Positions 2,450 through 56,351 of a stretch of 64,000 nt of DNA are shown piece by piece. The DNA is from Mangrovibacterium sp. (GTDB taxonomy: Bacteria; Bacteroidota; Bacteroidia; Bacteroidales; Prolixibacteraceae). Position 1 is the stretch's first letter; each line of letters begins with the position of its first letter. The translations under genes and the position numbers were made by a program. A model generated the notes under the pieces. The model saw nothing but the letters and a program-made list of their open reading frames with translations. It did no database searches and was not told the DNA's origin. The DNA is taken from contig NZ_JBFHIT010000009.1 in NCBI RefSeq assembly GCF_041596335.1, forward strand, positions 29,458 through 93,457, read 5' to 3'.

Positions 2450-2525
2450 TACAAGTGTTTACTTGAATCGCTTTTGCTTAAATCGGGTTTTTTTTATTGA
2501 AAAATGTATACTCAACGCGTTAATC

Positions 2526-11631: not shown

Positions 11632-12207
11632 TCATCCTGCAATTCGTTCGAGCAACCAAGCGATGTTTTCGCCAAGTGTTTTTATGGTCTGAATGCCTTC
11701 GTCGTCTTTTAACACGTCCCCTTCGGCTTTGCCAAACGCGAAATTCCAATACGATGAGCCAGGGACAATCATTTGACTTATCAGGAAAAAATTGTTAATC
11801 GTTTCAAAGGTATGTAGTTGCCCGCCTCTTCGAACTGAAATAACGGCAGCTCCTATTTTACGCTTCAAAAGGTGTCCATTTCCCCGCGTAACATAGCCTG
11901 CAACATCAATTAAAGCCTTTATTTCGGTTGTCACATCTGCAAAATAAACCGGCGACCCGATAATAATAGCATCAGCAGCAAGCATTTTGGCGATGCATTC
12001 GTTAATAGCAACGTTTTTAATATGGCATTGTTTGTTTTTAATCTCCCGACATTTGCCACAGGCGGTACAGCCGTGCACCTGCTTTCCACCCAGCTGAAAT
12101 ATTTCAGTCTGGTATCCGGCATTTTTTAAAGGCTCCAGCGCTGTGTCAAGCAAGATGCGGGTATTGCCATTTTTTCGCGGGCTTCCGTTAATTCCCAATA
12201 CTTTCAT
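11632..12207 (-). CDS. Flavodoxin-family iron-sulfur flavoprotein (NADPH-dependent FMN reductase)
   Basis: INGSPRKNGNT, CxxCxxC...C, GSPVYF. Confidence 0.88.
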   Translation of the reverse strand: MKVLGINGSPRKNGNTRILLDTALEPLKNAGYQTEIFQLGGKQVHGCTACGKCREIKNKQCHIKNVAINECIAKMLAADAIIIGSPVYFADVTTEIKALIDVAGYVTRGNGHLLKRKIGAAVISVRRGGQLHTFETINNFFLISQMIVPGSSYWNFAFGKAEGDVLKDDEGIQTIKTLGENIAWLLERIAG

Positions 12208-12220
12208 GTCGAATTAAAAT

Positions 12221-12877
12221 TTAGTTGCTGAAAACATATGAAACAATGTTTGCTCCCATTTTTAGAGCCTTTTCCCGTACGACTGGACTGTCGCCATGAA
12301 CTGCAGGATCTTCCCAGCCATCGCTGATATCTGATTCGTAGGTGTACAAACACACCAGCCGGTTTTCAATAAAAAGGCCAAAAGCTTGAGGTCGTTTCCC
12401 GTCGTGTTCGTGTATTTTGGGGAGTCCATTCGGAAACTCGAATTTCTGATGGAAAATTGGATGGTCGGTTGGAAGTTCAACAAAATCCTGATCGGCAAAA
12501 ATCTTTCTCATTTCGCGACGAATGAAGGCATCGAGGCCATAATTGTCGTCGATGTATAAGAAGCCACCTGCTTCGAAATATAATTTCAGGTTTCTGCATT
12601 CTTCCGGAGAGAATACAATATTTCCGTGGCCGGTAAGGTGTAAAATAGGGTAGTTGAAAATTTCGGTGCTTCCGGGTTCTACAGTTCCTGGATCAGCGGA
12701 GAAATTCGTATTTAATTCCCGGTTACAAAAGCTCATTAAATTTGGTAAAGCGGTTGGGTCGGCATACCAATCGCCACCTCCCCGGTACTTCACAAGACCG
12801 ATTTTTAGATCGGAAGGCTGAGCCCACCCCGGTTGGTTAGCCAAAATTAAAAATGAGATAATGAGCAAGATTTTCAT
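12221..12877 (-). CDS. DUF4159 domain protein
   Basis: VKYRGGGDWY, HLTGHG, GGFLYIDDNYGLD, DISDGWED. Confidence 0.8.
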   Translation of the reverse strand: MKILLIISFLILANQPGWAQPSDLKIGLVKYRGGGDWYADPTALPNLMSFCNRELNTNFSADPGTVEPGSTEIFNYPILHLTGHGNIVFSPEECRNLKLYFEAGGFLYIDDNYGLDAFIRREMRKIFADQDFVELPTDHPIFHQKFEFPNGLPKIHEHDGKRPQAFGLFIENRLVCLYTYESDISDGWEDPAVHGDSPVVREKALKMGANIVSYVFSN

Positions 12878-13063
12878 AATTCAATTGCTAGGATTCAAAG
12901 ATAGTAAGAATGAAATAGTTTTGAAGATTTTTATGAATTTGACAGGTAATATAGCAAACAGAAAAACTTATTGAGGAGAATGCTGTTATTTTTGCCAATG
13001 AATACCCGTGGCAGCATTCGTTTGTTCGAAGTGAATCGAATTCGTTGTCATTAAAAATTTAGA

Positions 13064-14302
13064 TTGATGGAAAGAAGTTTTACCACCCGTTCGCTAAATA
13101 TTCCTTTTCCTAAAGACGATCCGCATCGATCGCTGGATATGCCTGTTTATGAGTCTGTTGCTTTCGAGTTTGCAACATCGGAAGATATTGCCGCAAACTT
13201 TAGAGGTGAACTGCCCGCGCATGTATACTCGCGCACCAGCAACCCAACAGTGGAGTATTTCGAGCGAAAGATGAAAAGCCTCACAATGGCGCATCAGGTA
13301 TTGGCTTTGGCATCTGGTATGGCAGCAATAACGAATACTATTTTGTCGCTTTGTAAGGCTGGCGATAACATTATTTCCGGTAATCACTTGTTCGGTCACA
13401 GTTATGCTCTGTTTAAACAGAGTTTGTCGAATTACGGATTGGAAACCCGATTTGTGGATACAACCAAGCCGGCAGAAGTTGAACGGCTGATTGATGAAAA
13501 TACCCGTTTAATTTATTTTGAAACCGTCACAAATCCTCAGTTAGAAATCGCCGATATTCGGGCTCTGTCCGAATTAGCCAACAAATATAATCTGGTATTG
13601 GTTGCGGATAGTACACTCACTCCGCCGGTTGTTTTTAACTCAAAATCATTGGGGGTTCATGTCGAAGTGATGTCTACCACCAAGTACATTTCAGGCGGTG
13701 CAACTTCGTTTGGCGGAGTGATTCTGGATAACGGTATATTTGAATGGGCAAAAAACCCAAACACGAAAACATTTAGCGAGAAATTTGGGAAAGACGCTTT
13801 CATTGCCCGCTTGCGAAAAAATTATTACCGAAATACCGGTGCAGCAATGACAGCCCATACTGCTCACTACCAAATACTGGGACTGGATATTCTCGAACTA
13901 CGTTTAGAGCGAAGCTATGGTAGTTGTTTGTCCTTGTGCGAGTTCCTTTTCAATAACCAGAAAGTAAAAAAAGTAACCTATCCCGGATTGAAATTCTCTG
14001 CAGATTATGGCTTGGCTATGAGTCAGTTCAATGGCAAACCGGGAACTATTTTAACCTTCGATTTGGAATCGCAAGCTGCCTGTTTCTCTTTTATGAATCG
14101 ATTGCAGATTATTCGCAGAGCAACCAACCTGAATGATAATAAGTCGCTGATTATTCACCCATTTTCAACGATTTACGCAGAATTCACGGAGTCCGACAGG
14201 CAGGAAATGTGCATTCGCGATACCATGATGCGATTGTCGGTTGGGATTGAGGCACCGGCAGATCTAATTTCGGATATTGACCAGGCCTTGGCTGCTATTT
14301 AA
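13064..14302 (+). CDS. O-acyl-homoserine sulfhydrylase family PLP enzyme (MetZ/MetY-like)
   Basis: YSRTSNPTV, ASGMAAI, ETVTNPQL, STTKYISG, NLNDNKSLIIHP, RLSVGIE. Confidence 0.85.
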   Translation: MMERSFTTRSLNIPFPKDDPHRSLDMPVYESVAFEFATSEDIAANFRGELPAHVYSRTSNPTVEYFERKMKSLTMAHQVLALASGMAAITNTILSLCKAGDNIISGNHLFGHSYALFKQSLSNYGLETRFVDTTKPAEVERLIDENTRLIYFETVTNPQLEIADIRALSELANKYNLVLVADSTLTPPVVFNSKSLGVHVEVMSTTKYISGGATSFGGVILDNGIFEWAKNPNTKTFSEKFGKDAFIARLRKNYYRNTGAAMTAHTAHYQILGLDILELRLERSYGSCLSLCEFLFNNQKVKKVTYPGLKFSADYGLAMSQFNGKPGTILTFDLESQAACFSFMNRLQIIRRATNLNDNKSLIIHPFSTIYAEFTESDRQEMCIRDTMMRLSVGIEAPADLISDIDQALAAI

Positions 14303-14307
14303 TGAAA

Positions 14308-15012
14308 TCAGTCTTCGAGCAATAAGTTGCAGGTATGACAGGCTGCCAGTGCTGCGGTTTCGGTGCGCAGGCGACTGCTTCCCAAACTCACAGGGATGAA
14401 ATTGTTTTGCAATGCTGTTGTAAGCTCTTGTTCCGAAAAATCACCTTCCGGGCCGATTAGGATTAAATTCGATAAACTACCCGGAATTTCATTTTTCAAC
14501 TGTCGTTTGTCCAACTCGTGGCAATGGGCAATAAACTTTTTGCCCCGAAATTCGCTTTGCAACAATTCATTCAACGGAGTTAGCGGGTTTAGCCGGGGCA
14601 AATAGGCTTTCAATGACTGCTTCATGGCTGAAACGATTACTTTTTCGAGACGATCGTCTTTAATAACTTTTCGTTCCGAATGTTCACAGAGCACGGGAGT
14701 GATTTCGTCAATCCCAATTTCGGTCGCTTTCTCTAAAAACCACTCCAGCCGATCAATATTTTTGGTTGGAGCAACTGCTATATGGAGGTATGAATTTCGT
14801 TTGCCAAATTCCCGTTCCTGTGCTTGAACAACTATTTGGCAGCGCTTCGGATTGGCATCCGTTATTTGTGCTGTGTAAAGCGAACCTTTACCATCGATTA
14901 GCTGGATTGAATCACCGGGATTCAGTCGGAGGACCCGAATCGCGTGTTTTGACTCAATTTCATTTAACGTATATGATTTGCCTTGAATATCGGGTGTGTA
15001 GAAAAGCTGCAT
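14308..15012 (-). CDS. rsmE: 16S rRNA m3U1498 methyltransferase
   Basis: HAIRVLRL, EKATEIG, IGPEGDFS, LGSSRLRTETAA. Confidence 0.93.
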   Translation of the reverse strand: MQLFYTPDIQGKSYTLNEIESKHAIRVLRLNPGDSIQLIDGKGSLYTAQITDANPKRCQIVVQAQEREFGKRNSYLHIAVAPTKNIDRLEWFLEKATEIGIDEITPVLCEHSERKVIKDDRLEKVIVSAMKQSLKAYLPRLNPLTPLNELLQSEFRGKKFIAHCHELDKRQLKNEIPGSLSNLILIGPEGDFSEQELTTALQNNFIPVSLGSSRLRTETAALAACHTCNLLLED

Positions 15013-15033
15013 GTTGATCGACGTATTTATGAA

Positions 15034-15528
15034 TTAGCGATAGGTGCGTGGTTTTAGGTGATGAACCAGATCACCCTCTCTGGAAGCAATCGCGCTCCAA
15101 TGCTCGACATTAAAATCGATTACGGCGGTTGAGCATGTTGGAGTATCGCTGTTGAAAAAGCGAACCAGATTATTGATCAAATAATGAATGGTCGGGTTAT
15201 GTCCAAAAACAAAAACAGTTTCAACCTTGTCTTTCAATGTCTGAAGTATGTCAATAAAATCCTGTGTGGTCATTCCATCATACAGGTCTTCTTCCTTCTG
15301 TATTTTATCTTTATCGTATTGGAACGTATTCGCGTAGATTTTGGCCGTGCTAAAAGCCCGCTTTGCCGGACTGGAAATAATTAACCCTGGAGAAATACCC
15401 AGATTTTTCAATTCCAAACTTACTATCTCAGCGTCCTCTCGGCCACTTGGTCTCAGTTTACGATTAAAATCATCTTCGTAGCCATACGGAATTGCTTTAG
15501 CATGCCTAACAATTACTACTCTTTTCAT
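15034..15528 (-). CDS. SixA-type histidine phosphatase
   Basis: RHAKA, SSPAKRA, GHNPT. Confidence 0.85.
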   Translation of the reverse strand: MKRVVIVRHAKAIPYGYEDDFNRKLRPSGREDAEIVSLELKNLGISPGLIISSPAKRAFSTAKIYANTFQYDKDKIQKEEDLYDGMTTQDFIDILQTLKDKVETVFVFGHNPTIHYLINNLVRFFNSDTPTCSTAVIDFNVEHWSAIASREGDLVHHLKPRTYR

Positions 15529-15591
15529 TGGTGCGAATTTTAGAGCTAAATTAAACTAATTTTGGGCGATCGAAACAAGGAATAAGTAAAA

Positions 15592-16092
15592 ATGAAAAGA
15601 ATAGGTTTACTATCAGACACCCATGGCGCAATAAGTTCTAAAACCTTACACTTCTTCGAGAATGTTGATGAAATATGGCATGCCGGAGATATTGGAACGG
15701 TAGAGCTAGCCGATCAACTGATCGCTTTTAAGCCCATCAAGGCAGTCTATGGCAATATTGATAATCACATTGTTCGGAAGATGTTCCCCGAAAAACTTCG
15801 ATTCTTTTGCGAGGAAGTCGATGTGCTGATGACTCACATCGGCGGCTATCCCGGAAAATATCAGCCAACAGTCAGAAACGAGTTCAACCTAAAATCACCA
15901 CGACTCTTTATTTGCGGGCATTCGCACATTTTGAAGGTCGTATTCGATCAAAAATATAACTGCCTACATATCAATCCGGGAGCGGCAGGAAACAAGGGGT
16001 TTCACAATGTTTGTACGGCAATCCGTTTTGTAATTGATGGTACGGAAATTAAGGACCTAGAAGTTCATGAATTTGAAAGAGCTAATTTTTGA
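15592..16092 (+). CDS. YfcE-family metallophosphoesterase
   Basis: SDTH, HAGDIG, GNID, GHSH, NPGAAG. Confidence 0.88.
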   Translation: MKRIGLLSDTHGAISSKTLHFFENVDEIWHAGDIGTVELADQLIAFKPIKAVYGNIDNHIVRKMFPEKLRFFCEEVDVLMTHIGGYPGKYQPTVRNEFNLKSPRLFICGHSHILKVVFDQKYNCLHINPGAAGNKGFHNVCTAIRFVIDGTEIKDLEVHEFERANF

Positions 16093-34905: not shown

Positions 34906-35985
34906 TTATTTCAAAACAAACCGGTAGGTGATTGTTCCGGTTTGGAATGCTGGCGCATTGGGATCGGCGTTAAACGTTGCTTTAAGTGCTGCTTGTCGGG
35001 CAGCTTCCAGCATCTTGGCATTGTAGGTATTCGTACCTTGTACTCCGGGCTTTGCATTACTAACCTTACCGTATTTATCAACCGTGATACTCACGACAAC
35101 AACACCTTCTTCATTTCCGGGATAAGTAGGTTTGGGCAAGCCTGTTGCATTTCGTCCTTCAAGGCTGAAAGATGGGCCCGTGCCAGAGGCTCCGTTGCCT
35201 GTTCCGCCATTTCCGTTATTGGTTGAGTTGCCGCCTGTCGGACTTCCCTGGTTGCCTCCCGGATAGCTGGTGCCCTGTCCGGTGCTTTTTGAGCTGCTAC
35301 TTCCGGCTCCCGAGCCTGAACCAAAGGCATTGGCCGCGCGGTTATTAATTTGAGCTAACTTTTGTGCTTCGGCTTCCTTGCGTAAACGCTCTTCCTCTGC
35401 AGCCTTGCGCTGGCGTTCCAGTTCTGCTTGCTTTTGACGTTCAATTTCGGCCAAGCGCTGTTTCTCCGCTTCTATTTGTTTTTGCTTTTCCAATTCAGCC
35501 TGCCGCTTTTTTTCGGCTTCAGCAGCCAGCTTTTGTTGTTGAACAGCCTCCGCTTTCTTTTTCTGGTCGGCGATCTGTTGCTGACGGTTCAGCTCTTCCT
35601 GCTGCTTTTTTGCTTCTTCTGCTTTTTTCTTCTTTGCGGCTTCCAAAGCTACAGTCTTTTCATAATCCTGCGTCATCAATTCCTCTTTCGCCTGGGTTGA
35701 AGGAACTGAGGCTGCTGCCGATGCTGGAGGGGGCGGCGGTGTACTGGCCTGCACTACCGGAGCTTTTTCTTCCTTAACCACAACAGGAGGACTTTGCTTT
35801 TGAGCCGGGGCTGGTTCTTCTTCTCCCGCACCTTGCTCGCTATCGCCGAAATTCACCAGAATTCCTTCCTCGCCGGGCAAGGGGAGCGGTGTGAAAAAAC
35901 CAAAAAGCAGCAGCAATATCAGAATGATGACATGCACGACAATGGTTCCCCAAAATCCTTCTTTATGTTTTTGAATGTAGCTCAT
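34906..35985 (-). CDS. TonB/TolA-family energy transducer
   Basis: N-terminal TM, Pro-rich and K/A/E/Q coiled segment, C-terminal TonB_C (GVVVVSITVDKYGKV). Confidence 0.85.
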   Translation of the reverse strand: MSYIQKHKEGFWGTIVVHVIILILLLLFGFFTPLPLPGEEGILVNFGDSEQGAGEEEPAPAQKQSPPVVVKEEKAPVVQASTPPPPPASAAASVPSTQAKEELMTQDYEKTVALEAAKKKKAEEAKKQQEELNRQQQIADQKKKAEAVQQQKLAAEAEKKRQAELEKQKQIEAEKQRLAEIERQKQAELERQRKAAEEERLRKEAEAQKLAQINNRAANAFGSGSGAGSSSSKSTGQGTSYPGGNQGSPTGGNSTNNGNGGTGNGASGTGPSFSLEGRNATGLPKPTYPGNEEGVVVVSITVDKYGKVSNAKPGVQGTNTYNAKMLEAARQAALKATFNADPNAPAFQTGTITYRFVLK

Positions 35986-46011: not shown

Positions 46012-46365
46012 ATGAAAAACCAGTATGAAACCGTTTTCATTGCAACTCCCGTTTTATCTGACGTTCAGATAAAGGAAGCGGTAAGTAAATTCAAGGGCAT
46101 CATCACCGAAAACGGTGGCGAAATTGTCAATGAAGAGAACTGGGGTTTACGCAAGTTAGCTTATCCCATTCAGAAAAAAAGCACTGGCTTCTATCATTTG
46201 TTCGAGTTCAAAGCTGAACCAGAACTGATTGCAAAGCTAGAGCTGCAGTACCGTCGCGACGAACGTATCATTCGATTCCTGACTTTCAAACAGGATAAAT
46301 ATGCTACTGAGTACAGCGCAAAAAGAATCAATAATTTGAAAGCTAAAACTGTAAAGGAGAACTAA
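46012..46365 (+). CDS. rpsF: 30S ribosomal protein bS6
   Basis: [21 protein letters not shown]; C-terminus ...KTVKEN. Confidence 0.97.
46353..46359 (+). promoter_or_regulatory. Shine-Dalgarno sequence for rpsR, embedded in the last rpsF codons
   Basis: AAAGGAG 9 nt upstream of ATG 46369; no such motif before rpsF or rplI. Confidence 0.6.
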
Positions 46366-46368
46366 GCT

Positions 46369-46638
46369 ATGGCAAGTAATCAAGGTGAAATCCGTTACCT
46401 GACCCCCCCGTCGGTTGAAATTAAAAAGAAAAAGTATTGCCGCTTTAAAAAGAACAAGATCAAGTTTGTGGATTATAAAGATCCTGAGTTCTTGAAGAAA
46501 TTCCTGAACGAACAAGGTCGTATTCTTCCACGTCGTATTACAGGTACTTCATTGAAGTATCAACGTAAAGTGGCTAAAGCAGTAAAAAGAGCCCGTCATT
46601 TGGCTTTGCTGCCCTTCGTAACTGATATGTTGAAATAA
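46369..46638 (+). CDS. rpsR: 30S ribosomal protein bS18
   Basis: [28 protein letters not shown]. Confidence 0.97.
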
Positions 46639-47158: not shown

Positions 47159-47196
47159 AAAGCCGTCAGCTTCACACACTGACGGCTTTCTTATTT
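47159..47196 (+). terminator. Intrinsic terminator of rpsF-rpsR-rplI, also the integration target
   Basis: 11-bp stem AAAGCCGTCAG / CTGACGGCTTT, loop CTTCACACA, then CTTATTT. Confidence 0.88.
47168..47196 (+). repeat. attL core direct repeat
   Basis: AGCTTCACACACTGACGGCTTTCTTATTT (29 bp), identical to 56323-56351. Confidence 0.93.
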
Positions 47197-47264
47197 ATAT
47201 ATGACTACATACTTCTGATTATCAAAGACTTGTAGCCTTTTGTTTCTTAAATCGAATGATCAGA

Positions 47265-47305
47265 TATAACCACTGTATATACACGGCGTGAATTTTGTGG
47301 TTATA
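47265..47305. repeat. Probable integrase arm-type sites, left arm
   Basis: TATAACCAC at 47265-47273 and inverted GTGGTTATA at 47297-47305. Confidence 0.65.
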
Positions 47306-47538
47306 GGTTTTGAGTGTTAATAACATATTGGCTCGTGTCGAGGATGTTATTTAGAATCTGTTTAATTAATTTTCGTTTTCTCATATGTAAAATTAATAAA
47401 GAACTACAGGACAGCATGTTAGTGTGTAAAAAGTCAATTATCTTTCCATTTTATCCTCTACACACCCCGCACCGCCCTGTAGACTAATTGTGCGCACAAA
47501 ATAGAGATGTTGTGTTATATGCCTAAATATCAGACAAT

Positions 47539-47781
47539 TTAAACACTCTTATCTTTCATCATCAGGTACCCAGAATTTTTAAGAATTGATTTATATACTT
47601 TTACCAACTGTTCTGGAGTAAAAGATCTGGCCCTTAATAGCCTGTAAAAATGAGAAGTAGATATTTCTGTCTCTTTGACAATTTTCGAAACTGGCACCTG
47701 TGATAGATCCAGTAACTCGGAAAGATCCCGTTGAAGCCTTGCAAGCTTTTTAGAGTCACTACAAATACAGCTCATAATCAT
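47539..47781 (-). CDS. Small HTH (XRE-like) DNA-binding protein, 80 aa
   Basis: VSKIVKETEISTSHFYRLLR HTH; ATG overlaps the RimK-like stop (TAATG). Confidence 0.6.
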   Translation of the reverse strand: MIMSCICSDSKKLARLQRDLSELLDLSQVPVSKIVKETEISTSHFYRLLRARSFTPEQLVKVYKSILKNSGYLMMKDKSV

Positions 47782-48899
47782 TAAACTAAGCGAATGGTTA
47801 AACTTTGACGGATACACATTTTGTCTATTTCAGTCTTATTCCGGTGATACTCGCGTTCTGAGAGTACAACTTTTGATAGACCTTCACCAAAGAGAATATG
47901 AACAGGGCGGCCAACCAATGAAGACAATTCCGCACTTAGAGGATTTGAAAAACCGGATGCTTTCATGTCTGTTGTGTTATTGCTCATGTTGCCGTCCTTG
48001 TGATTGCGCTCACAGTATTCAATTAATGGTGTTGATATGTCAACACCTGTAACCTGCTGAATATGATACCCGTAGTTGCCATTGACTTCTATCACAAAGG
48101 TTTTCCCTTTTTTATCCTTCATAATGTCAACCCCGGCAACCTCAAGACCGCAAACCCTGGCAGCATCAACGCAAATGGTTTTATCTTCTTCTGATAGCTC
48201 AACTTTCCTCCCGGTTCCTCCCTGGCTAATGTTTGCCCGGAGTTCCCCCTCTCTGGCTGTTCGCTCCATTGCTACGATTACTTTTCCGTCAATCACAATG
48301 GCTCTAATATCCTTTGCTCCTGAATCAATAAAATTCTGAAGCAATAGATTTTCTTTTCGATCTGAGAAATTTTTCAAAAACACATTGGTTTGATACTCAT
48401 CATTCAGCGGAAAAACTGTTTTCCCTTGGCTCCCGGTTAAGCCTTTGGCAATTGCAGGCAATCCACCAACCTGCTCAATCATCCATGCCGGATGAATAGC
48501 TCTATCCCCTAGAACCGTTTGAGGAACTCGAATTTTAGCCTGGCTAATCTTCTGCTGAGAGATTAACTTGTCGGCTGCTGTCTTAATTCCGTTGGATGTT
48601 TGGGTACTGAAAATCTTAAGGTTCCTGTTTAGGTGCTCTAATACAGAGCACCCATAAGCTAAATTTATTCCGATACGGGGAATAATCGCATCGTATCCCT
48701 TTGCGTTTAGCCGGATAGGGCGGTCTTCTTGCCCGTATCCATCATAAACACGGTCGTAACCAGCTACTTTATCGGATATCAGTAGATACAAGAAAGCTGG
48801 ATCTTTAACAATCATCTCGTGCCCTCTTTTTTGTCCTTTTAAAACAATATCACGAGTTGCATAACTGCCCGGAGCGGCTGAAAGAATAAGAATTTTCAT
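47781..48899 (-). CDS. RimK-family ATP-grasp (alpha-L-glutamate ligase-like) with a ~72-aa C-terminal extension
   Basis: MKILILS, DAIIPRIG, DKL, VGGLPAIAK, GSQG, LLQNFI, DIRAIV, RANISQGG, VAGVDI, IEVN, TGVDI. Confidence 0.88.
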   Translation of the reverse strand: MKILILSAAPGSYATRDIVLKGQKRGHEMIVKDPAFLYLLISDKVAGYDRVYDGYGQEDRPIRLNAKGYDAIIPRIGINLAYGCSVLEHLNRNLKIFSTQTSNGIKTAADKLISQQKISQAKIRVPQTVLGDRAIHPAWMIEQVGGLPAIAKGLTGSQGKTVFPLNDEYQTNVFLKNFSDRKENLLLQNFIDSGAKDIRAIVIDGKVIVAMERTAREGELRANISQGGTGRKVELSEEDKTICVDAARVCGLEVAGVDIMKDKKGKTFVIEVNGNYGYHIQQVTGVDISTPLIEYCERNHKDGNMSNNTTDMKASGFSNPLSAELSSLVGRPVHILFGEGLSKVVLSEREYHRNKTEIDKMCIRQSLTIRLV

Positions 48900-48902
48900 G
48901 AA

Positions 48903-49661
48903 TTAAAATTTTAATTGTAAAACTTTGGATTGTTCGTCGCTTAGATAACTGATCATACTTACAACTCCTGAATTTGAATTTCTGAACATGCAGTATGCCG
49001 GTTTGTAGTTCGTTATGAAGTAGTTTGGATTCCCGGTAGATTTAGGTAGATCACTGTATTTCCTTTCAGTTCTATACGGGATCATAAGCTGAGAGAACGA
49101 AGCCGGAAAGTCTTCTTTGCAAAAATTACACCCAATATTATTGAGTGAATTAATGGTCGCGCAAAACTTTTGAATGAGAATCAAAACCGTATTTTCCTGC
49201 TCGTTTCTCGTGTAATGAGAATTTGAGTCTACAATCTGGGAAACTAACTCGGACGTAGCTTCAAACGATTCTCCATTAAAAATTGACTTAAATTGATTCT
49301 GCCATCCTGGGAGATGAATAGTTGTTTCTTGAAATGCCTGAACTGCCATTATGATATTTGTGAAATCTGGCAATTCAACCATTTCAATAAGCTTATCAAT
49401 TTTCACGCTGAGAGAATTCATAAAATCAGAATACCGCTCATCCTGTTCAATGTGGAGAACCTGGAAGAAACGCAACAAATCTCTAGTTGCTGCCAGTGTC
49501 GATAAGTCTTTCAATTCAATAGGACTTTTAAACCTCTTTTGCCATTCAGAAGAGAGATGATTTAAAGCTTCAATCAATTCATCCCAACGATTAAGCTCTG
49601 TTTTGATTCTCTCTTCATCTTTCCCGATTAACATCGGTGTAAATTCACTTTTCATTTTCAT
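48903..49661 (-). CDS. Hypothetical protein, 252 aa, mostly helical
   Basis: Long ORF tightly coupled to its neighbours; no recognised motif. Confidence 0.6.
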   Translation of the reverse strand: MKMKSEFTPMLIGKDEERIKTELNRWDELIEALNHLSSEWQKRFKSPIELKDLSTLAATRDLLRFFQVLHIEQDERYSDFMNSLSVKIDKLIEMVELPDFTNIIMAVQAFQETTIHLPGWQNQFKSIFNGESFEATSELVSQIVDSNSHYTRNEQENTVLILIQKFCATINSLNNIGCNFCKEDFPASFSQLMIPYRTERKYSDLPKSTGNPNYFITNYKPAYCMFRNSNSGVVSMISYLSDEQSKVLQLKF

Positions 49662-49815
49662 TACTTTTTGTTGTTAATAAAATATTCTTAAGCCTTCTGT
49701 ATAGAAAGTCGCTTTTGGTTGTATTGAGCATCTTTGTTAGTTGCTCAAAATTTCGCTTCTCTTCCCTTGTCAACCGAAAAGAAACTACTTCGCTCTTTGG
49801 GAATTTTATTGTCAT
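49645..49815 (-). CDS. Ribbon-helix-helix (MobC/CopG-like) small protein
   Basis: MTIKFPKSEVVSFRLTREEKRNFEQLTKMLNTTKSDFL: beta strand followed by two helices. Confidence 0.6.
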   Translation of the reverse strand: MTIKFPKSEVVSFRLTREEKRNFEQLTKMLNTTKSDFLYRRLKNILLTTKSNENEK

Positions 49816-50093: not shown

Positions 50094-50306
50094 TTATTTT
50101 GCGTTGCTCAATTTCTCAAGATCAATCTCAATGAAGGGGAGGTTTTCCTTTAAATTCACCAGATCCATTTCTAGGCCTGCTAATGTTGCTAAATGAGTCA
50201 ATGTTTCCTCACCAGCGTTATTAAAAATTAAGAAATCTTTGGTTTTGCGAATCTCTTCGATATAGATTGCAATAGTTTCTTCTAATAGTAAATCTGATCG
50301 CATCAT
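50094..50306 (-). CDS. Hypothetical protein, 70 aa
   Basis: Directly follows the primase on the same strand. Confidence 0.5.
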   Translation of the reverse strand: MMRSDLLLEETIAIYIEEIRKTKDFLIFNNAGEETLTHLATLAGLEMDLVNLKENLPFIEIDLEKLSNAK

Positions 50307-50310
50307 AATT

Positions 50311-51150
50311 CTAAATTTTATTGATTAATAATTCGTTGAAATCTTTATAATTTGGATATATCATTTCTGCCTGGTTGATCGTGTTCGGGTGTGCGTTTAT
50401 AATTCGTTGAGCGGCTTCTTTACCGGCTGGATCTGTGTCCAGGTAGAGGTTAACCCGGTTGTACTTTTGAAGATCCACCAATAGGGCTTCGTTTATATTG
50501 TTGAGTGAATTGAGAACAATTGTATTGTTTTTTGCTTCGAGAGATCTAAAGTATTCGAGAGCAGATAGGAAGTCCGGCCAACCTTCAAACAGGTTTACCG
50601 ACTTTGTAACTCCTGGAATTGTTGTGATTGCTTTGGGAGAACTGCCACCTTTGAAATATTTATTTCGAAGTTCAAACCCGCCTTTGTCGTTTTTGAATGC
50701 CAGGGCGAAATAATTTTTATCGTTGGCTCGATAATAGGCTTCCTTCAGGTACTTTTCGGCAATTGTGGCCGAAATCTTCCGGGAATTCAGGTATTGAATT
50801 AATGCCCGGTTTTGCAGCGGTTGGAGGTGCTTAATCTCAATTCCAGGATCAACAGGCTGGTCAAAAGAAAAAGATTCGACTGGTGCAGGGGAGAAGCCCG
50901 ATAGGATCAGCAACGCGCCGGCAACCGATACCCCAGACAGGTAGCAAACCAGATCCACCGGGCGGCCACCTTTGCCCGATCCGAAATCATACCAGACATT
51001 TTTAACCCGGTCAATTTTCAAACTCGCTTGGCTCTCGTTGCGGTTTGGTGACTTAAACCAAATATCATGTTTCCTGACTTCTCCACTTTGGTTATAGTGC
51101 AGGGTCAGAATGTGGGTGCACGGGATATTATTTGCTTCGTTGCAATTCAT
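50311..51150 (-). CDS. DNA primase (N-terminal zinc-binding-like domain plus Toprim)
   Basis: WFKSPNRNESQASLK, WYDFGSGKGG, GGFELRN, LFEGWPDFLS, LYLDTDPAG, YKDFNE. Confidence 0.88.
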   Translation of the reverse strand: MNCNEANNIPCTHILTLHYNQSGEVRKHDIWFKSPNRNESQASLKIDRVKNVWYDFGSGKGGRPVDLVCYLSGVSVAGALLILSGFSPAPVESFSFDQPVDPGIEIKHLQPLQNRALIQYLNSRKISATIAEKYLKEAYYRANDKNYFALAFKNDKGGFELRNKYFKGGSSPKAITTIPGVTKSVNLFEGWPDFLSALEYFRSLEAKNNTIVLNSLNNINEALLVDLQKYNRVNLYLDTDPAGKEAAQRIINAHPNTINQAEMIYPNYKDFNELLINKI

Positions 51151-51188
51151 GTTCTTTTCTTTTTTGACTAGCAATTCTGTTTAGTGCT

Positions 51189-51482
51189 CGGACAACTATT
51201 AACGCTCCTCTGTCCGGTTCCATTCCCGGACGGACAGAATAGATAGCCTTGTCCGTCCGATTATCTTACCGGACAACTCTGTCCAGTCTTATTTTTAATT
51301 TATATATATAATAATGATATGTAGCAAGTTACGGCTGTCCGGTTTTGTCCGGGAAGGCAGTTAAGCCTTGACTGCGGCAAATGGCTGTCCGATATGTCCA
51401 GCATGTCCGGGCAGTCCGGGCTGTCCATTATCTGAATATTTGTCCGGTAAAGTCCGCATGTCCGGTTTGTCCGGCTTGTCCA
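51189..51482. repeat. Iteron-like TGTCCG cluster around an AT-rich core (putative replication origin)
   Basis: About 20 (T/A)GTCC(G/A) motifs, many at ~9-bp spacing (e.g. 51386, 51395, 51404, 51413, 51422), with inverted copies at 51189, 51231 and 51269; AT-rich stretch 51289-51320. Confidence 0.7.
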
Positions 51483-52464
51483 GTTCTTCTTTTATAGAAT
51501 TTCCCCAGTGAGGGCTATCCTTTAGCCAATCCGCAACGGTGGACTTTGATTTTCCAACTTTGGCGGCTATTTCTCTAATCGTTAATTGTGGGTTTTGATT
51601 TTTTAGGGAGAATGCCATGATCTTGGGATCATCGGTCGAAATGCTCAGATTGTCAGATTCTGAGCTGGTGCCAATCTCAAAGAACTGGAGAAAATCTCCG
51701 TCTTTATCAATCCCAAATTCTAAAACATTACCGGAGTGATAGACCGGCTCACAGCTTCTTGACGGCTTAACTTGTTTTAAATATCGGTTTGATGATCCTT
51801 TCGAGCTTTTACCGATTGCAAAAACTGAATCGGCAAAGTTTGAGAGATGTTTAGATCCTGAAAGATCGGAAATAGTAATAGGTGAGTTTTCAGCTCTTTT
51901 GGGGGTGTGGGCTAAAACTAAAACACTCAATTCATGCTCTCGTTTTAGTTCAATAAGCTTTCTCATTATATCTAAAGAGGCTTGCTGATCCTGTGTGGTC
52001 TGAGTATTAAGGAAAGTGATATTATCAATAATTAGGATTTTAGCCCTTGTCTCAATAATATCATTTTTGAACTTATGAAAAATCGATTCTAGAAAGCTCA
52101 GTTTTGGATCTTTGTCAAATAGCTCAATGAAATCTATGTTATCGATAAAAAAGTTATCTGAGAATTCATGGATTTTCCCGGTTTTATCATCCTGGTATCT
52201 TTTTTGGAATTGTTTGTCAGATAGCTCAAAGTCATAATAGAGCACTATTTGTGGTTCACATTCATTTAGTAATGAATCAGTAACATTTACACCTTTGCTT
52301 AGGCCATCTCCAGTCTGTATGCTAAATATTGATTTTCCGACTCCAGTATCTGCAAACAATATTGCAACTTCTCCACTGTGCCAAATTGGACCTAATAGAG
52401 AAAGAATATCCGGCTGCTTTTGAGCGTCCTCAATTCTTTGATTTGCGGTTCTTATTCTTTTCAT
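51361..52464 (-). CDS. AAA-family ATPase/helicase (AAA_25-like) with C-terminal HTH
   Basis: Walker A FADTGVGKS, YYDFEL, Walker B IIDNIT, LAHTPK, GSKHLSNFADSVF; TIREIAAKVGKSKSTVADWLK HTH. Confidence 0.85.
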   Translation of the reverse strand: MKRIRTANQRIEDAQKQPDILSLLGPIWHSGEVAILFADTGVGKSIFSIQTGDGLSKGVNVTDSLLNECEPQIVLYYDFELSDKQFQKRYQDDKTGKIHEFSDNFFIDNIDFIELFDKDPKLSFLESIFHKFKNDIIETRAKILIIDNITFLNTQTTQDQQASLDIMRKLIELKREHELSVLVLAHTPKRAENSPITISDLSGSKHLSNFADSVFAIGKSSKGSSNRYLKQVKPSRSCEPVYHSGNVLEFGIDKDGDFLQFFEIGTSSESDNLSISTDDPKIMAFSLKNQNPQLTIREIAAKVGKSKSTVADWLKDSPHWGNSIKEELDKPDKPDMRTLPDKYSDNGQPGLPGHAGHIGQPFAAVKA

Positions 52465-52621: not shown

Positions 52622-52939
52622 TTATTTGTTTAGAAACGAATAGTCCTGCGGCTGATCCTTTGCAATCACTTTGATTGATTGTATCCAGGCGGCAACCTCT
52701 CCGCGTTTTACGAATAACCTCCGTCCGGGCTGGTAGTATGAAAGTTCGTTGTTGTTGATGGCCTTACGTAGCATGTAGTCTTTGCAGCCAAACTCTTTTT
52801 CAGCCGTTTGCAGGGTTATAAACTGCTCAGGATCTTTAAGAGCTGAGGCGGGTTCTTTACTTAGTGCCTGGTTAATGCACTTTTCTACTATTGGCTTTAC
52901 AAAGGCCTCCAGAGCTTCAAGTATTTTTTCTTCTTTCAT
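52622..52939 (-). CDS. Excisionase-like helix-turn-helix protein
   Basis: FITLQTAEKEFG...LRKAINNNELSYYQPGRRLFVKRGEVAAWI. Confidence 0.75.
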   Translation of the reverse strand: MKEEKILEALEAFVKPIVEKCINQALSKEPASALKDPEQFITLQTAEKEFGCKDYMLRKAINNNELSYYQPGRRLFVKRGEVAAWIQSIKVIAKDQPQDYSFLNK

Positions 52940-52949
52940 GAGCAGGATT

Positions 52950-53111
52950 TTAAAAGTTGGGGATTACTAATCGAATGGCAAAGCGGATTAACTCACTCTG
53001 GCTAACCTGTTCTTTTTCGCAGAACTGTTTTAGCTTCTTTACCTCTTCGGGTGAAGCTTTAAAACCCAAAAGCTTTGTTTTATGGGTCTTCTTTGGGATC
53101 TTGAATGTCAT
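52950..53111 (-). CDS. Unlisted 53-aa ribbon-helix-helix protein
   Basis: Own translation: MTFKIPKKTHKTKLLGFKASPEEVKKLKQFCEKEQVSQSELIRFAIRLVIPNF*. Confidence 0.6.
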   Translation of the reverse strand: MTFKIPKKTHKTKLLGFKASPEEVKKLKQFCEKEQVSQSELIRFAIRLVIPNF

Positions 53112-53307: not shown

Positions 53308-54213
53308 TTATTTTTTTAATAGCCAGTCAAAAAAAGTATCGTGATACCTGTTAATATCGTGATATAACGCAATTACTTTTGGGTTCTTACAAACTCTGGC
53401 AATTGTGGTTTTAGAGTGATTGTATTTGGCTGCTAGTTGGGAGTAGGATATATCATTTTGAATGTGGTCTTGATATATTTCAACCAGTTCTTTATCCCAT
53501 ATTCTTTTATGTAGGTGTCTTTCTTCAAACAGATCTCTACTTCTCAACCGGTGATCCTCCCGTGAACTATGTAATTTTCGTTTGAGAGTCGCTGTTTTGA
53601 TATGAGATTCATTAATCCCGGTAATTGCCTTTACCTCTTCTATTGCAGCATCAATAGTTTTGTGATAGAAGCATTTTGAATTGATGTAATCGTAGAAAAA
53701 ACTGTTTAGGGATTCATTGATCGAGCGAATCCTTTTAGCGTACGTATTCAGGAAAATAGAAGAGTTATAGTCTCCAGTTTTTCTTTTGTACTTATTTACT
53801 CGTTTTATAGGAAAGGTGATTTTTACGAGGGAATATCCGGTCAATACAAACTGTTTCAGCTCTGGCGGTAAGTTTTTTCTGCTTTTGTACCACTCAATAG
53901 TTAAATCATCATAATCATTAACTAGCGGCTCAATGCCATCAAGTAACATCATGAAATACATATCTATGATATGACAGATACGGTCTTCTCTCATACTTTC
54001 ATCGGAGTAGATTCTTTCAAACTTGTACTTGCCTAGTTTTCTGGCATTAGATAATGATTTGATGTATTTCTCTGTTTCTTCCCGGGGAATCAGTGGCCAA
54101 ATACGATCCCAATCCACTTTTATAAACTTTGCCAAGTGTGGCTTAAGCGGTAAAATGACAAACCTGGTAGGCCGTTTTTGCGGTTTGTCGGGTAATTTGT
54201 TAATTTTGTCCAT
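53308..54213 (-). CDS. Hypothetical 301-aa protein with C-terminal HTH
   Basis: ISYSQLAAKYNHSKTTIARV HTH at the C-terminus. Confidence 0.6.
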   Translation of the reverse strand: MDKINKLPDKPQKRPTRFVILPLKPHLAKFIKVDWDRIWPLIPREETEKYIKSLSNARKLGKYKFERIYSDESMREDRICHIIDMYFMMLLDGIEPLVNDYDDLTIEWYKSRKNLPPELKQFVLTGYSLVKITFPIKRVNKYKRKTGDYNSSIFLNTYAKRIRSINESLNSFFYDYINSKCFYHKTIDAAIEEVKAITGINESHIKTATLKRKLHSSREDHRLRSRDLFEERHLHKRIWDKELVEIYQDHIQNDISYSQLAAKYNHSKTTIARVCKNPKVIALYHDINRYHDTFFDWLLKK

Positions 54214-54295: not shown

Positions 54296-54646
54296 TTAAT
54301 CAACTTCGTTTTCTTCGTGCAGTTCCCGCTTTAGAGCGTGTTTTACCAGTTGATTTAGGGTAATGCCCTTGGCGGCTGCTACTTGAGCGGCTTTCCGGTG
54401 GAGGTCAACACTAAGCCGAACATTAAAACTCCCTTTGTACGATTTTTCTACCGGCTTTCCTTCTCTTTTGCAGTCCTCAATATGCAGATCCACCATTTCC
54501 TCAAAGGCGGCCTCCAGTTCGTCAACGGTCGTTCCTTCAAAAGTTACCAGGTCGTTTATCCCTTCAACTTTACCAAAGAAAACCCGGTCGTCGGCACTGT
54601 AATTAACTGTGCCCATAAAACCTTTGTACTCCATTACATTTTTCAT
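54296..54646 (-). CDS. hicB: HicB antitoxin
   Basis: MEYKGFMGTVNYS, FFGKVEGINDLVTFEG, YKGSFNVRL RHH. Confidence 0.9.
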   Translation of the reverse strand: MKNVMEYKGFMGTVNYSADDRVFFGKVEGINDLVTFEGTTVDELEAAFEEMVDLHIEDCKREGKPVEKSYKGSFNVRLSVDLHRKAAQVAAAKGITLNQLVKHALKRELHEENEVD

Positions 54647-54891
54647 AGTGCATTCATGTTTTTTAGTTCCTGTTCAATTTGATCCAGCTGGTAGCGTTTT
54701 AAGATGTTGCCCGGATGTGGCTTGTGCAGTTTCATTTTGTGCCCGTTTTCTTCTTTGGCAAAAACAACTCTTGATCCGGCTCCCTGGGCTTGTTTGTAAC
54801 CAAAGTGGGACAACAGGGTAAGCAGCTCGTTGTAAGTAAAATCTTTGGGTTTGCTCTTAAACCGGCTAATCAGCTTTTCAATTTTGCTCAT
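54643..54891 (-). CDS. hicA: HicA toxin
   Basis: DFTYNEL, GAGSRVVF, LHKPHPGNILKRYQ; overlaps the hicB start. Confidence 0.88.
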   Translation of the reverse strand: MSKIEKLISRFKSKPKDFTYNELLTLLSHFGYKQAQGAGSRVVFAKEENGHKMKLHKPHPGNILKRYQLDQIEQELKNMNAL

Positions 54892-54938: not shown

Positions 54939-56174
54939 CTATAATAGTTTTCTGTTCATTTCGTCCAGGTAGCTATCCTCAAAGCTTTTGAGGTAGATTG
55001 TCGTTGTCTTTTCGTTGGTGTGTCCCATTCCTTCCGATATAGCAGCCACCGGAGAACCCAATTGTTTTTGGATAGTTGCCCAACTGTGCCGGGCTACATA
55101 AGTAGTCAACGGCTCAATCCCTAACTCATTCGATAAGTCTTTTAGTTTCCGGTTGGTTTGACGTAGTACAGTTTTAATCCGTTCCTTTTGCTCCTTGGGT
55201 GTTTTATAAATCTTGTCGTTTAATATTGGTAGCAAGTAGTTACCGGCGTAAGGATGTTTTGAAAAATACTTTAGCATATCGCTAACTGGTTCCATAATCT
55301 CAATCGAAAACCGCTGTTTGTTCCGGGTCTTGATCCTGGAATAGATGATCCGGTTTCCGGATAGGTTGTCTTTGGTGAGGTAGGCCATGTCCGTAAAGTT
55401 CATACCACGGGTGTAAAAGCTGAACAGGAAATAAAGCCGGGCATCGTGTAAAGAGGACAGGGGCTTTGTTTCGGCATTCTCAACCAGTCTGATCGTGTCC
55501 AGGCTTACAGCCCGTTTCCTGGTGACGGTTTCCAGCGCGCTTATTTTGTACCCGTTTGGTTTTGTGTTGTTGTGGAACGGATACAGATCGGCTGGTGTAA
55601 TGTCGGCGGCAATGGCTTTATTGTATGTCGCCCGGAGTGTACGCATATACAAAACCATCCCGTTTCCCTTCATTCCCTTCTGGGTGAGGTGTGTCTCATA
55701 ATCTTCCAGAAATGAAAGATCGATGTCGGTAAAGCGAAGTCCGGACACCGGTTTAAAATTCCACAGTGAGTTTTTCACCGTCTTATAAATCCCGGCGTTG
55801 CCGATCTTGTTTTTCTTTTCAAGGCCTTTGATCAACTGGTCAAAAAAAGGATAGACGTAGTTTTGATCTTTGATCTTGAAAAAATACTTTTTGAAGGTCT
55901 CCAGGGTTACCGGAATGTTTCTTTTTTCAAGATCCAGTAAAACACTGTGTGCCTCGGCTTCCCGCTGAATTACAAAAGCATTGATCTGCTTGTACTGCTT
56001 TACTCCGGATGCTGGTTTTATTTGCCCATCGGTGAAATGATCCGGAAAAAACCGTTCGTTAATCTTTAAGTCGATGTAATATTTCACCCGGTGCATGGTT
56101 AAGCGGAGAACAATTTTTCTTTTTCCTCTCGCATCTTTATTAATCGGGTGAAGCATGATTTTTAGTGTTGCCAT
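54939..56174 (-). CDS. int: Site-specific tyrosine integrase (Bacteroidota Arm-DNA-bind / SAM-like / catalytic domains)
   Basis: FLFSFYTRGMNFTDM (R substituted by N), YSRIKT, TTYVARHSWAT, EGMGH, TTIY catalytic Tyr. Confidence 0.93.
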   Translation of the reverse strand: MATLKIMLHPINKDARGKRKIVLRLTMHRVKYYIDLKINERFFPDHFTDGQIKPASGVKQYKQINAFVIQREAEAHSVLLDLEKRNIPVTLETFKKYFFKIKDQNYVYPFFDQLIKGLEKKNKIGNAGIYKTVKNSLWNFKPVSGLRFTDIDLSFLEDYETHLTQKGMKGNGMVLYMRTLRATYNKAIAADITPADLYPFHNNTKPNGYKISALETVTRKRAVSLDTIRLVENAETKPLSSLHDARLYFLFSFYTRGMNFTDMAYLTKDNLSGNRIIYSRIKTRNKQRFSIEIMEPVSDMLKYFSKHPYAGNYLLPILNDKIYKTPKEQKERIKTVLRQTNRKLKDLSNELGIEPLTTYVARHSWATIQKQLGSPVAAISEGMGHTNEKTTTIYLKSFEDSYLDEMNRKLL

Positions 56175-56322: not shown

Positions 56323-56351
56323 AGCTTCACACACTGACGGCTTTCTTATTT
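56323..56351 (+). repeat. attR core direct repeat
   Basis: Identical to 47168-47196 but lacks the 5' arm of the terminator stem. Confidence 0.93.

Follow-up and report, generated by a model that had tools for sequence, protein, structure and literature searches.

A RimK-family ATP-grasp ligase as the constant gene of diverse small mobile replicons in Bacteroidota

The DNA analysed in this work is a stretch of 64,000 nt from Mangrovibacterium sp. (assembly GCF_041596335.1, contig NZ_JBFHIT010000009.1, positions 29,458-93,457 of the forward strand), hereafter called the window. Our subject is a 9.15-kb mobile element in this window and, in particular, a RimK-family ATP-grasp carboxylate-amine ligase that is encoded near its left end. 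It belongs to a clade whose gene is the only constant one in a set of small, selfish and polyphyletic replicons of Bacteroidota. An earlier note on the same DNA had described the ligase and its neighbours as cargo of the element. However, the ligase is constant across the element family and is also carried by two ~4-kb Rep_1 plasmids, and since it stays constant while the replication genes are swapped around it, it is a hallmark gene rather than cargo. With high confidence, we regard it as the hallmark ligase of an element family, with a specificity other than that of RimK.

Occurrence on small replicons

Neighbourhoods of the ligase were taken from three long genome contigs, 40 GTDB species genomes, two IMG/VR contigs and 39 metagenome contigs. 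In total there were 77 non-redundant loci, 38 of which extend at least 6 kb upstream of the ligase. The earlier note had proposed to check whether the clade recurs on integrative elements, and it was repeatedly found on them. An integrase and/or a helicase or primase lies near the ligase in 36 of the 38 loci, and a helicase or primase in 33 of them. The recurring order is an integrase, often a divergent cI-like helix-turn-helix (HTH) protein, a small excisionase-like HTH protein, a helicase, a primase, one or more small open reading frames (ORFs), the ligase, and sometimes a further small ORF. The arrangement integrase, excisionase, helicase, primase, optionally a ribbon-helix-helix (RHH) protein, and ligase recurs in Prolixibacteraceae, Bacteroidales and Cytophagales. 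The replication genes themselves are non-homologous between elements: the helicases are of the AAA_25, VapE or DUF5906 type, and the primases are of the Toprim, RepB_primase, BT4734-like plus PriCT_2, or Zn_ribbon_DnaG type.

Convincing attachment-site (att) repeats, 18-88 bp long, were found in the window and in seven other loci, and the elements that they delimit have sizes of 6.5-9.2 kb. In these elements the ligase is the last or second-to-last gene, located in most of them 350-590 bp from the repeat, and at most one small ORF follows it (in the window there is in addition one doubtful ORF on the opposite strand). The att sites are tRNA 3' ends, as in loci L006 and L014, or hairpins. Repeats of 17 bp in L040 and 19 bp in L024 would give elements of 11-12 kb with further genes after the ligase.

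The ligase is also present on circular replicons. Two contigs, L105 (3.8 kb, with a terminal overlap of 30 bp) and L008 (4.0 kb, with a terminal overlap of 124 bp), each encode the ligase, a Rep_1 rolling-circle initiator that scores above the Pfam cutoff, and small RHH-like proteins. A match to an RHH family, which is weak, was obtained for the small proteins of L105 only and not for those of L008, which has an extra 104-aa ORF after the ligase. Contig L103 (8.2 kb, from integrase to ligase) carries a 46-bp terminal repeat, which represents either a circular form or att repeats at both ends. Among short metagenome contigs with a permuted gene order or no integrase, L135 has the ligase at both ends, L140 contains the ligase, a small ORF, VapE and Toprim in this order, and L137 contains a helicase and the ligase without an integrase. 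These three contigs suggest further versions of small, circular, non-integrating replicons.

Some observations concern the surroundings of the elements. In L097, a second and different integrase element (integrase, HTH_17 and AAA_25, 11871-15837) lies directly downstream of the ligase element, so that the two stand in tandem at one att site, and L085 also has a second integrase downstream. Beside the tRNA-type att site of L004/L014 there are four tandem copies of a 100-aa GIY-YIG gene with a period of 400 bp (2113-3621), and just one such gene stands beside the element in L002/L006. A retropepsin-like Asp_protease_2 gene is found in the host flank, one gene before the integrase, in L097 (253-1317) and L106 (1265-2329). 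Because the insertion site is the same, this is effectively one observation and may be a coincidence. RimB, the partner of RimK in Pseudomonas, is a retropepsin-like protease.

Phylogeny of the clade

Relatives of the ligase form 464 protein clusters at E < 1e-10, with cores that are 55-79% identical. The clade is confined to Bacteroidota and is deeply diverged (38-79% identity). In a neighbour-joining tree constructed from the core region of 92 sequences, it is separated from chromosomal (Proteobacteria and other bacteria), archaeal and phage RimK-like proteins, and this split was recovered in 57 of 60 bootstraps. Comparison with chromosomal RimK was another check proposed earlier; the ligase clade is monophyletic and is not nested among the chromosomal RimK-like proteins, to which the ligase is 33-39% identical. 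Identity to the 'S6 glutaminyl transferase' genes of cyanophages is 31-33%. Close homologues are absent from sequenced phages (50,697 records) and plasmids, where no match exceeds 37% identity.

The source databases annotate members of the clade as 'ribosomal protein S6--L-glutamate ligase' or 'RimK family alpha-L-glutamate ligase'. Probably the 'S6--glutamate ligase' label is wrong in its substrate, and neither label reflects the mobile-element context.

Family, fold and active-site residues of the ligase

The window ligase (372 aa, 47781-48899, minus strand) consists of a core of residues 1 to ~305 and a hypervariable C-terminal tail of ~65 aa. It matches the Pfam families RimK (PF08443; 5.6e-37, 127.6 bits against a cutoff of 21) and Rimk_N (PF18030; 48.1 bits against 26.4), and passes the NCBIfam RimK-family cutoff (TIGR00768; 172.3 bits against 143.4). 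However, it fails the RimK equivalog model NF007764, with 147.9 bits against a cutoff of 331. Other NCBIfam models of the superfamily also score below their cutoffs, namely MptN (133 bits), CofF (45 bits), LysX (99 bits against 276) and the ATP-grasp maturases of graspetides and other RiPPs (TIGR04187, 21 bits against 350; TIGR04185, 17 against 425). Nor are the small ORFs beside the ligase conserved, as precursor peptides of such maturases with a conserved leader would be. The ligase matches PDB entry 7qyr with E 2e-46, and residues 1-300 align end to end with the Pseudomonas and E. coli RimK structures. An AlphaFold2 (AF2) model of the ligase has a pLDDT of 86, and Foldseek aligns it to RimK 7qyr with a TM of 0.93 and a root mean square deviation of 1.9 A.

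The motifs DKL, AK, LQ, DIR, R.N, GVD and EVN are all present, EVNGNYG replaces EVN(A/S)SPG, and LRAN replaces FRSN; both the retained catalytic motifs and the two changes had been read correctly in the earlier note. Seven residues, K111, K152, D258, E271, N273, R75 and R199, are the same in all 43 clade sequences, and correspond to K100, K141, D248, E260, N262, R64 and R189 of E. coli RimK. Of these, R189 is the arginine that binds the C-terminal carboxylate of the acceptor. The serine at RimK position 264 is changed to asparagine in 41 of 43 clade members, and the N-domain contains a clade-specific insert of ~11 aa (GYDR.YDG, residues ~44-62).

The main departure from RimK concerns the arginine belt, that is, the residues that guide polyglutamate or an acidic tail (PMC10375531). 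Four of its six arginines are lost in the clade: Arg is found at the site of R8 in 0 of 18 sequences, at R96 in 0 of 43, at R98 in 5 of 43 and at R102 in 6 of 43, whereas chromosomal RimK-like proteins have Arg at these sites in 31-40 of 40 sequences. Note that the E. coli residue numbers were transferred through the alignment with Pseudomonas RimK, in which the same positions are Arg. No shift in the net charge of the core that might hint at a basic acceptor was seen (mean +3.7, against +4.7 in chromosomal relatives). Our reading of these residues is that catalysis would be retained and RimK-style binding of an acidic tail would not. Since four of the six belt arginines are lost, RimK-style polyglutamylation is argued against. 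The loss is compatible with one residue being added to the C-terminal helix of bS6, which is basic and phylum-specific in Bacteroidota (PMC7797042).

The gene cluster and the variable tail

In the window, the ligase is encoded in a cluster of four co-oriented minus-strand ORFs at 47539-49815. The first gene encodes an RHH protein of 56 aa (49645-49815, with an ATG at 49815; a longer version with a TTG start extends to 49839). It is followed by a 252-aa orphan protein (48903-49661), the ligase, and a small protein of 80 aa (47539-47781). The RHH and 252-aa genes overlap by 17 nt, the gap between the 252-aa gene and the ligase is 3 nt, and the stop codon of the ligase overlaps the start codon of the 80-aa gene in the sequence TAATG, by which the 80-aa gene is, judging from the sequence, translationally coupled to the ligase. 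Because two terminator-like hairpins on the same strand (50021-49995 and 49985-49971), located between the replication genes and the ligase operon, precede the RHH gene, the cluster looks like a transcription unit of its own. The tightly coupled four-gene operon at the left end of the element was thus described accurately before; however, it is not a conserved four-gene unit, since the 252-aa gene is a rare insert and the RHH gene is confined to one subclade.

The window RHH protein is CopG/NikA-like. Its NikA-like match (E 0.002) is below the cutoff, it matches PHROG 876 'transcriptional repressor' with 1.6e-4, and its homologues weakly match RHH_1 and RepB-RCR_reg. Of 79 loci, 24 have a match to an RHH profile within 700 bp upstream of the ligase; all of these belong to the Bacteroidales/Prolixibacteraceae-type subclade, and RHH was absent from the Cytophagales-type loci among those scanned. 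In seven of the 24 loci, including L005, L006, L007, L105 and L106, the RHH gene overlaps the start of the ligase by 4 nt; in the window the 252-aa gene separates the two. The RHH protein is likely to be the transcriptional regulator of the operon, and it is unlike a typical RHH antitoxin because it is too short (~50-56 aa).

The 252-aa protein has no match in Pfam, NCBIfam, PHROG or PADLOC. Its family is small: it comprises 8 clusters when grouped at 90% identity, and an exhaustive profile search returned 43 representatives (50% level), all of them unnamed. Its AF2 model is mostly helical, with a pLDDT of 82 in just one of five models, and Foldseek searches of this model against the PDB and BFVD returned nothing below E 0.5. 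A 255-aa protein at the same position in L097 is 31% identical to it. The gene is a rare, lineage-specific accessory insert. A 268-aa homologue is also encoded in a larger prophage-like element in L104 (3580-18771), which encodes an integrase, an HTH_17 protein, a primase of the BT4734-like type and a tape-measure protein of 800 aa, and which is without the ATP-grasp ligase.

The 80-aa protein had been called an HTH protein. This label was only a guess from the sequence, and no match was obtained in Pfam, NCBIfam, PHROG or PADLOC; the protein is possibly DNA-binding. Homologues of 79-94 aa occupy the same position in L005, L006, L096, L097, L101 and L127. The small ORFs that precede or follow the ligase in other subclades are different ones; several of them overlap its stop codon, and they have no C-terminal motif in common.

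The tail of the ligase begins after residue ~305 and has a median length of 59 aa across the clade. Tails are 22% identical where the cores are 63% identical, and shuffled tails give 20%. In the AF2 model the tail is partly structured, with helices and a beta-hairpin (pLDDT 64-89). Between tail types, the 80-aa gene that follows is usually better conserved than the tail (18-41% against 16-20%), and therefore the tail looks like a local hotspot of variability and not merely like the edge of homology. When sequences with the same core identity (~74%) are compared, one tail type unites the window, L096, L097 and L101, each of which has a homologue of the 252-aa gene upstream, and a second type, in L005 and L006, occurs without the 252-aa gene.

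The window element and its attachment site

The element lies between two 29-bp direct repeats, and all of its genes are on the minus strand. The left repeat (AGCTTCACACACTGACGGCTTTCTTATTT) is at 47168-47196, the right repeat is at 56323-56351, and the two copies match exactly. The left copy comprises the 3' arm and T-tract of the terminator hairpin of rplI, whose arms are at 47159-47169 and 47179-47189. Together with the integrase at the right end, the repeats support the earlier statement that the element is inserted in the terminator after rplI. Between the left repeat and the last gene there is a non-coding end of 342 bp (47197-47538), which has no homology-supported ORF and contains short imperfect repeats only; it is possible that it serves as an origin, a transfer site or a packaging site. 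No convincing operator-like repeats were found in this region or upstream of the RHH gene.

The replication module (50094-52464) consists of a 70-aa ORF, a Toprim primase (50311-51174; Pfam Toprim_2 8e-12, PHROG DNA primase) and an AAA_25/DnaB-like helicase (51361-52464; AAA_25 1.3e-16, DnaB_C 3.6e-7, PHROG DnaB-like helicase). Next come an HTH_17 excisionase-like protein (52622-52939) and a second RHH protein (52950-53111), both assigned by Pfam and PHROG, and a 301-aa protein without a family match (53308-54213). The tyrosine integrase (411 aa, 54939-56174) forms the right end of the element, and matches the NCBIfam Xer/integrase family and the PHROG 1 integrase (1e-20).

Proteins of 245-322 aa without a known family adjoin the integrase in many related elements. 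They fall into two BLAST clusters and may not all be homologous. The 301-aa protein of the window groups only with a 275-aa protein of L006 (5762-6589), and a separate cluster holds the integrase-adjacent position in Cytophagales-type elements (for example, L018 5933-6670).

Between the 301-aa gene and the integrase there is a pair of small genes, of 82 aa (54643-54891) and 116 aa (54296-54646), that overlap by 4 nt and were read as HicA/HicB-like from their sequences only. The NCBIfam search gave just one weak match here, of the 116-aa protein to YlcI/YnfO. If the HicAB reading is right, the element already owns a conventional addiction module.

Pfam and PHROG scans recognised no capsid, terminase or interference gene on the window element, and no relaxase family match among the ten element proteins scanned; the nearest relaxase-type signal is given by the weak NikA-like RHH matches (18.6 bits against a cutoff of 27). 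There are no tRNA genes or Rfam families in the window. Elsewhere in the window, the region 34906-35985 is GC-rich (GC 0.51) with an AT skew of -0.33, and corresponds to a low-complexity Pro/Ala/Glu/Lys linker in a TonB-like protein. The two genes after it were read as ExbD and ExbB, all three assignments being made by reading the sequence, and the arrangement is ordinary.

Relation to the ribosomal operon

The position of the window element behind rpsF-rpsR-rplI had suggested a special tie to the ribosome. In the comparison set of 42 clade loci (L005-L044, L085 and L086), no locus has rpsF, rpsR or rplI within 10 kb, and the other att sites are tRNA 3' ends or other hairpins. Hence, the position behind rplI reflects the site choice of this integrase, and the proposed tie has no support that is independent of this locus. 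The C-termini given earlier for the host proteins are right: in this host, the only one checked, bS6 ends with ...AKTVKEN, that is, with Asn rather than Glu-Glu, and bL9 ends with ...FEVVSE. In Bacteroidota, the C-terminal helix of bS6 is basic and specific to the phylum, and lies at the anti-Shine-Dalgarno pocket, where it contacts the 16S 3' end (PMC7797042).

A bias of translation had also been proposed, but the element genes show no enrichment of Shine-Dalgarno sequences; only the helicase gene has a G-rich leader. On the host side, rpsR (bS18) is preceded by a strong Shine-Dalgarno-like motif, AAGGAGA, located ~7-8 nt upstream of the ATG (46343-46371), and the other genes inspected nearby are without such a sequence, save for the G-rich leader of the helicase gene. 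The rpsR motif fits the reported autoregulation of bS18 in Bacteroidia (PMC7797042).

Proposed function and alternative explanations

In the mechanism that we propose, the ligase would be an active ATP-dependent enzyme, joining an amino acid to a carboxylate on an acceptor other than that of RimK, and this acceptor would be supplied by the host cell, or else by a rival phage or element. It is probably not encoded by the element, since the ligase is found on replicons whose replication proteins are unrelated, whether or not they have an integrase. For the replicon, the benefit of the reaction would lie in establishment, maintenance or spread. Partner specificity may be set, or the enzyme regulated, by the variable tail and the small neighbours (here the 252-aa and 80-aa proteins), and the RHH protein may autoregulate the operon. 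Tagging of a host or rival protein, as predicted from these features, is a tentative proposal, to which we give clearly less than even weight. Its fuller form is doubtful: here the clade would be a common 'host-handling' enzyme of unrelated small plasmids and integrative elements, tagging the C-terminus of a host or rival protein, with the tail choosing the partner. Among possible targets in that case are the phylum-specific C-terminal helix of bS6 that lies at the anti-Shine-Dalgarno pocket, or else a hub protein of replication or defence. The overall explanation, which is a rough blend of the hallmark and tagging claims, is the best one available and we favour it with modest confidence.

Several points weigh against this explanation. 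The substrate, the product and the benefit are all things that we infer from sequences, and the argument for a substrate from outside the element ignores both the poorly conserved small ORFs beside the ligase and self-modification. Many of the contigs are short metagenome fragments, and the helicase and primase counts are lower bounds because gene families were defined by BLAST clustering. The neighbour-joining tree is simple, and very divergent pairs raised distance warnings. The association of a tail type with the 252-aa gene comes from four related loci, and a strict coupling of the two was rejected: in L105 a similar tail occurs in the absence of that gene, and L104 has a homologue of that gene without the ligase. 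In addition, the tail could be weakly constrained rather than diversifying, the confidence of its AF2 model being moderate (64-89).

Among the alternatives, we considered that the ligase is a growth-arresting toxin acting on an essential host protein, restrained by its tail and/or the small coupled proteins, and released upon loss of the element or phage infection by a logic like that of CapRel. This addiction or abortive infection system would explain why a variable C-terminal region is attached to a conserved enzymatic core, why small non-conserved ORFs overlap the stop codon of the ligase in many loci and why an RHH gene is translationally coupled upstream in one subclade. It also agrees with the presence of the ligase on minimal plasmids, where stability genes are typical, and with its place beside the att site, where prophage exclusion genes are often found. 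However, it is usually in their defence and toxin-antitoxin genes that related elements vary, while the ligase is constant here; the RHH protein, with ~50-56 aa, has no room for a toxin-binding extension and is absent from the Cytophagales-type subclade; and the window element already has a HicAB-like pair, as read from its sequence. In addition, none of the four proteins of the operon matched a model in PADLOC-DB v2, and neither did the two further element proteins that were scanned, so that a known defence system was rejected as a candidate. We therefore consider this alternative unlikely. Exploitation of a helper by a satellite, in which the ligase would modify a protein of a helper phage or conjugative element to redirect packaging or transfer and the tail would track helper diversity, appears quite unlikely. 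The layout of integrase, excisionase and primase/helicase, the small size and the lack of capsid and relaxase genes do resemble PICI, P4 and PICMI-type satellites, two clade loci are in IMG/VR viral contigs, and the 8.2-kb L103 with its 46-bp terminal repeat is consistent with a circular form. Nevertheless, the same ligase is carried by ~4-kb Rep_1 plasmids without an integrase, no close homologue exists in the 50,697 phage records, and no helper was identified.

Tagging of the ribosome, that is, addition of one or more residues to the C-terminus of host bS6 (or bL9) that would perturb the Bacteroidota-specific pocket in which the anti-Shine-Dalgarno sequence is hidden and bias translation, is attractive as a concept and draws on the facts that RimK is the nearest family by sequence and fold, that the clade is restricted to Bacteroidota, and that the phylum-specific bS6 helix contacts the 16S 3' end (PMC7797042); the loss of the belt would suit a basic rather than an acidic acceptor tail, such as the bS6 end in the window. 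It is very unlikely in view of the adjacency to rpsF-rpsR-rplI, which is unique to the window (0 of 42 comparison loci), of the terminal Asn of host bS6 in place of the Glu-Glu that RimK extends, of the equivalog score of 148 against 331, and of the element genes without Shine-Dalgarno enrichment, and a hypervariable tail is hard to square with a highly conserved ribosomal target. A ligase acting on small molecules would instead, as L-amino-acid ligases, MptN and CofF do, produce either short peptides (di- or oligopeptides) or glutamylated metabolites, and the carriers would profit from the product, which would serve as an antimicrobial compound, as a signal or as the tail of a cofactor. The RimK family does include small-molecule glutamate ligases (MptN and CofF, with 133 and 45 bits, below cutoffs), RimK polymerises free glutamate (PMC10375531), and no conserved protein partner is encoded beside the ligase; but elements of 4-9 kb with no linked transporter, immunity or biosynthetic genes, and a variable, partly structured tail that suggests macromolecular recognition, make it highly unlikely. 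Finally, the annotation 'ribosomal protein S6--L-glutamate ligase' at source would fit an ordinary chromosomal rimK lately captured by one element as a chance passenger. The probability of this is negligible, as the clade is monophyletic, deeply diverged (38-79%) and consistently on mobile elements, with only 33-39% identity to chromosomal RimK-like proteins and different signature residues; the tree, the residue table and the neighbourhoods refute it.

Comparison with known systems and implications

RimK itself (E. coli 4IWX/5ZCT; Pseudomonas 7QYR/7QYS) has the same pre-ATP-grasp plus ATP-grasp fold as the ligase (TM 0.93), which is 34-37% identical to the Pseudomonas enzyme and 29-31% identical to that of E. 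coli. All nucleotide-binding, Mg-binding and catalytic residues, together with R64 and R189 of the carboxylate-binding site, are kept. In contrast, the ligase fails the equivalog cutoff, is without R8, R96, R98 and R102, has G/S-N-P/Y in place of the SSP loop, and possesses the ~11-aa N-domain insert and a hypervariable tail of ~60 aa. It resides on small mobile replicons rather than alone or with rimA/rimB, and the window bS6 is without an acidic tail. Accordingly, the ligase is a member of the RimK family that fails three features of RimK proper, namely the equivalog score, the arginine belt and the acidic bS6 acceptor.

Other systems are similar in part. The phage 'ribosomal protein S6 glutaminyl transferase' of PHROG 2599 (cyanophages S-RIM8, S-RIM12 and S-RIM32) is also a RimK-family ATP-grasp protein on a mobile genome with presumed host targets; however, identity is 31-33% over 61% of the protein, it forms a separate branch of the tree, and it is an accessory gene in large lytic phages and not the hallmark of a family. 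In the LysX/ArgX-LysW systems, the target of a RimK-family ligase is the C-terminal carboxylate of a small protein whose gene lies nearby, and here too small ORFs are coupled to the ligase. Unlike LysW, the small neighbours of the clade lack conservation and share no acidic C-terminus, a biosynthetic operon is missing, and the LysX score is 99 against 276. ATP-grasp proteins of the R2K clade, known from phages and conflict systems (Burroughs, Zhang & Aravind 2015, PMC4431377), are peptide ligases of phages and other elements without a linked substrate gene, predicted to modify proteins of the host or an invader, but they belong to another ATP-grasp clade (CDC123/DUF4343-like) and are not described as the hallmark of small Bacteroidota replicons. 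The satellites PICI, P4-like, PICMI and the marine VEIMEs share with our elements the integrase, the excisionase-like HTH protein, the primase/helicase, the compact size of 6.5-9.2 kb and the att repeats at tRNA genes or terminators. The elements described here differ in that they have no recognised packaging, capsid-remodelling or known interference genes and that their constant extra gene is an amide ligase; such a ligase goes unmentioned in the VEIME satellite paper.

The occurrence of some rim genes near mobile elements has been remarked in passing (PMC11957791). In the searchable literature, we found no description of the clade, of its status as a constant gene on Bacteroidota elements and Rep_1 plasmids, of the belt loss or of the variable tail. 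Because the ligase is small and soluble-looking and is carried by easily manipulated ~4-kb plasmids, its activity, target and phenotype are directly testable.

Small plasmids and islands normally share genes for replication, integration or transfer, not an amide ligase. Here a single enzyme stays constant while all other functions of its replicons are exchanged, and it has kept its catalytic machinery but lost most of the substrate-binding belt of its best-known relative. This suggests that mobile DNA may manipulate the Bacteroidota cell in a way not recognised so far. If the host-handling reading is true, the ligase would be the first post-translational tagging enzyme that defines a family of mobile elements.

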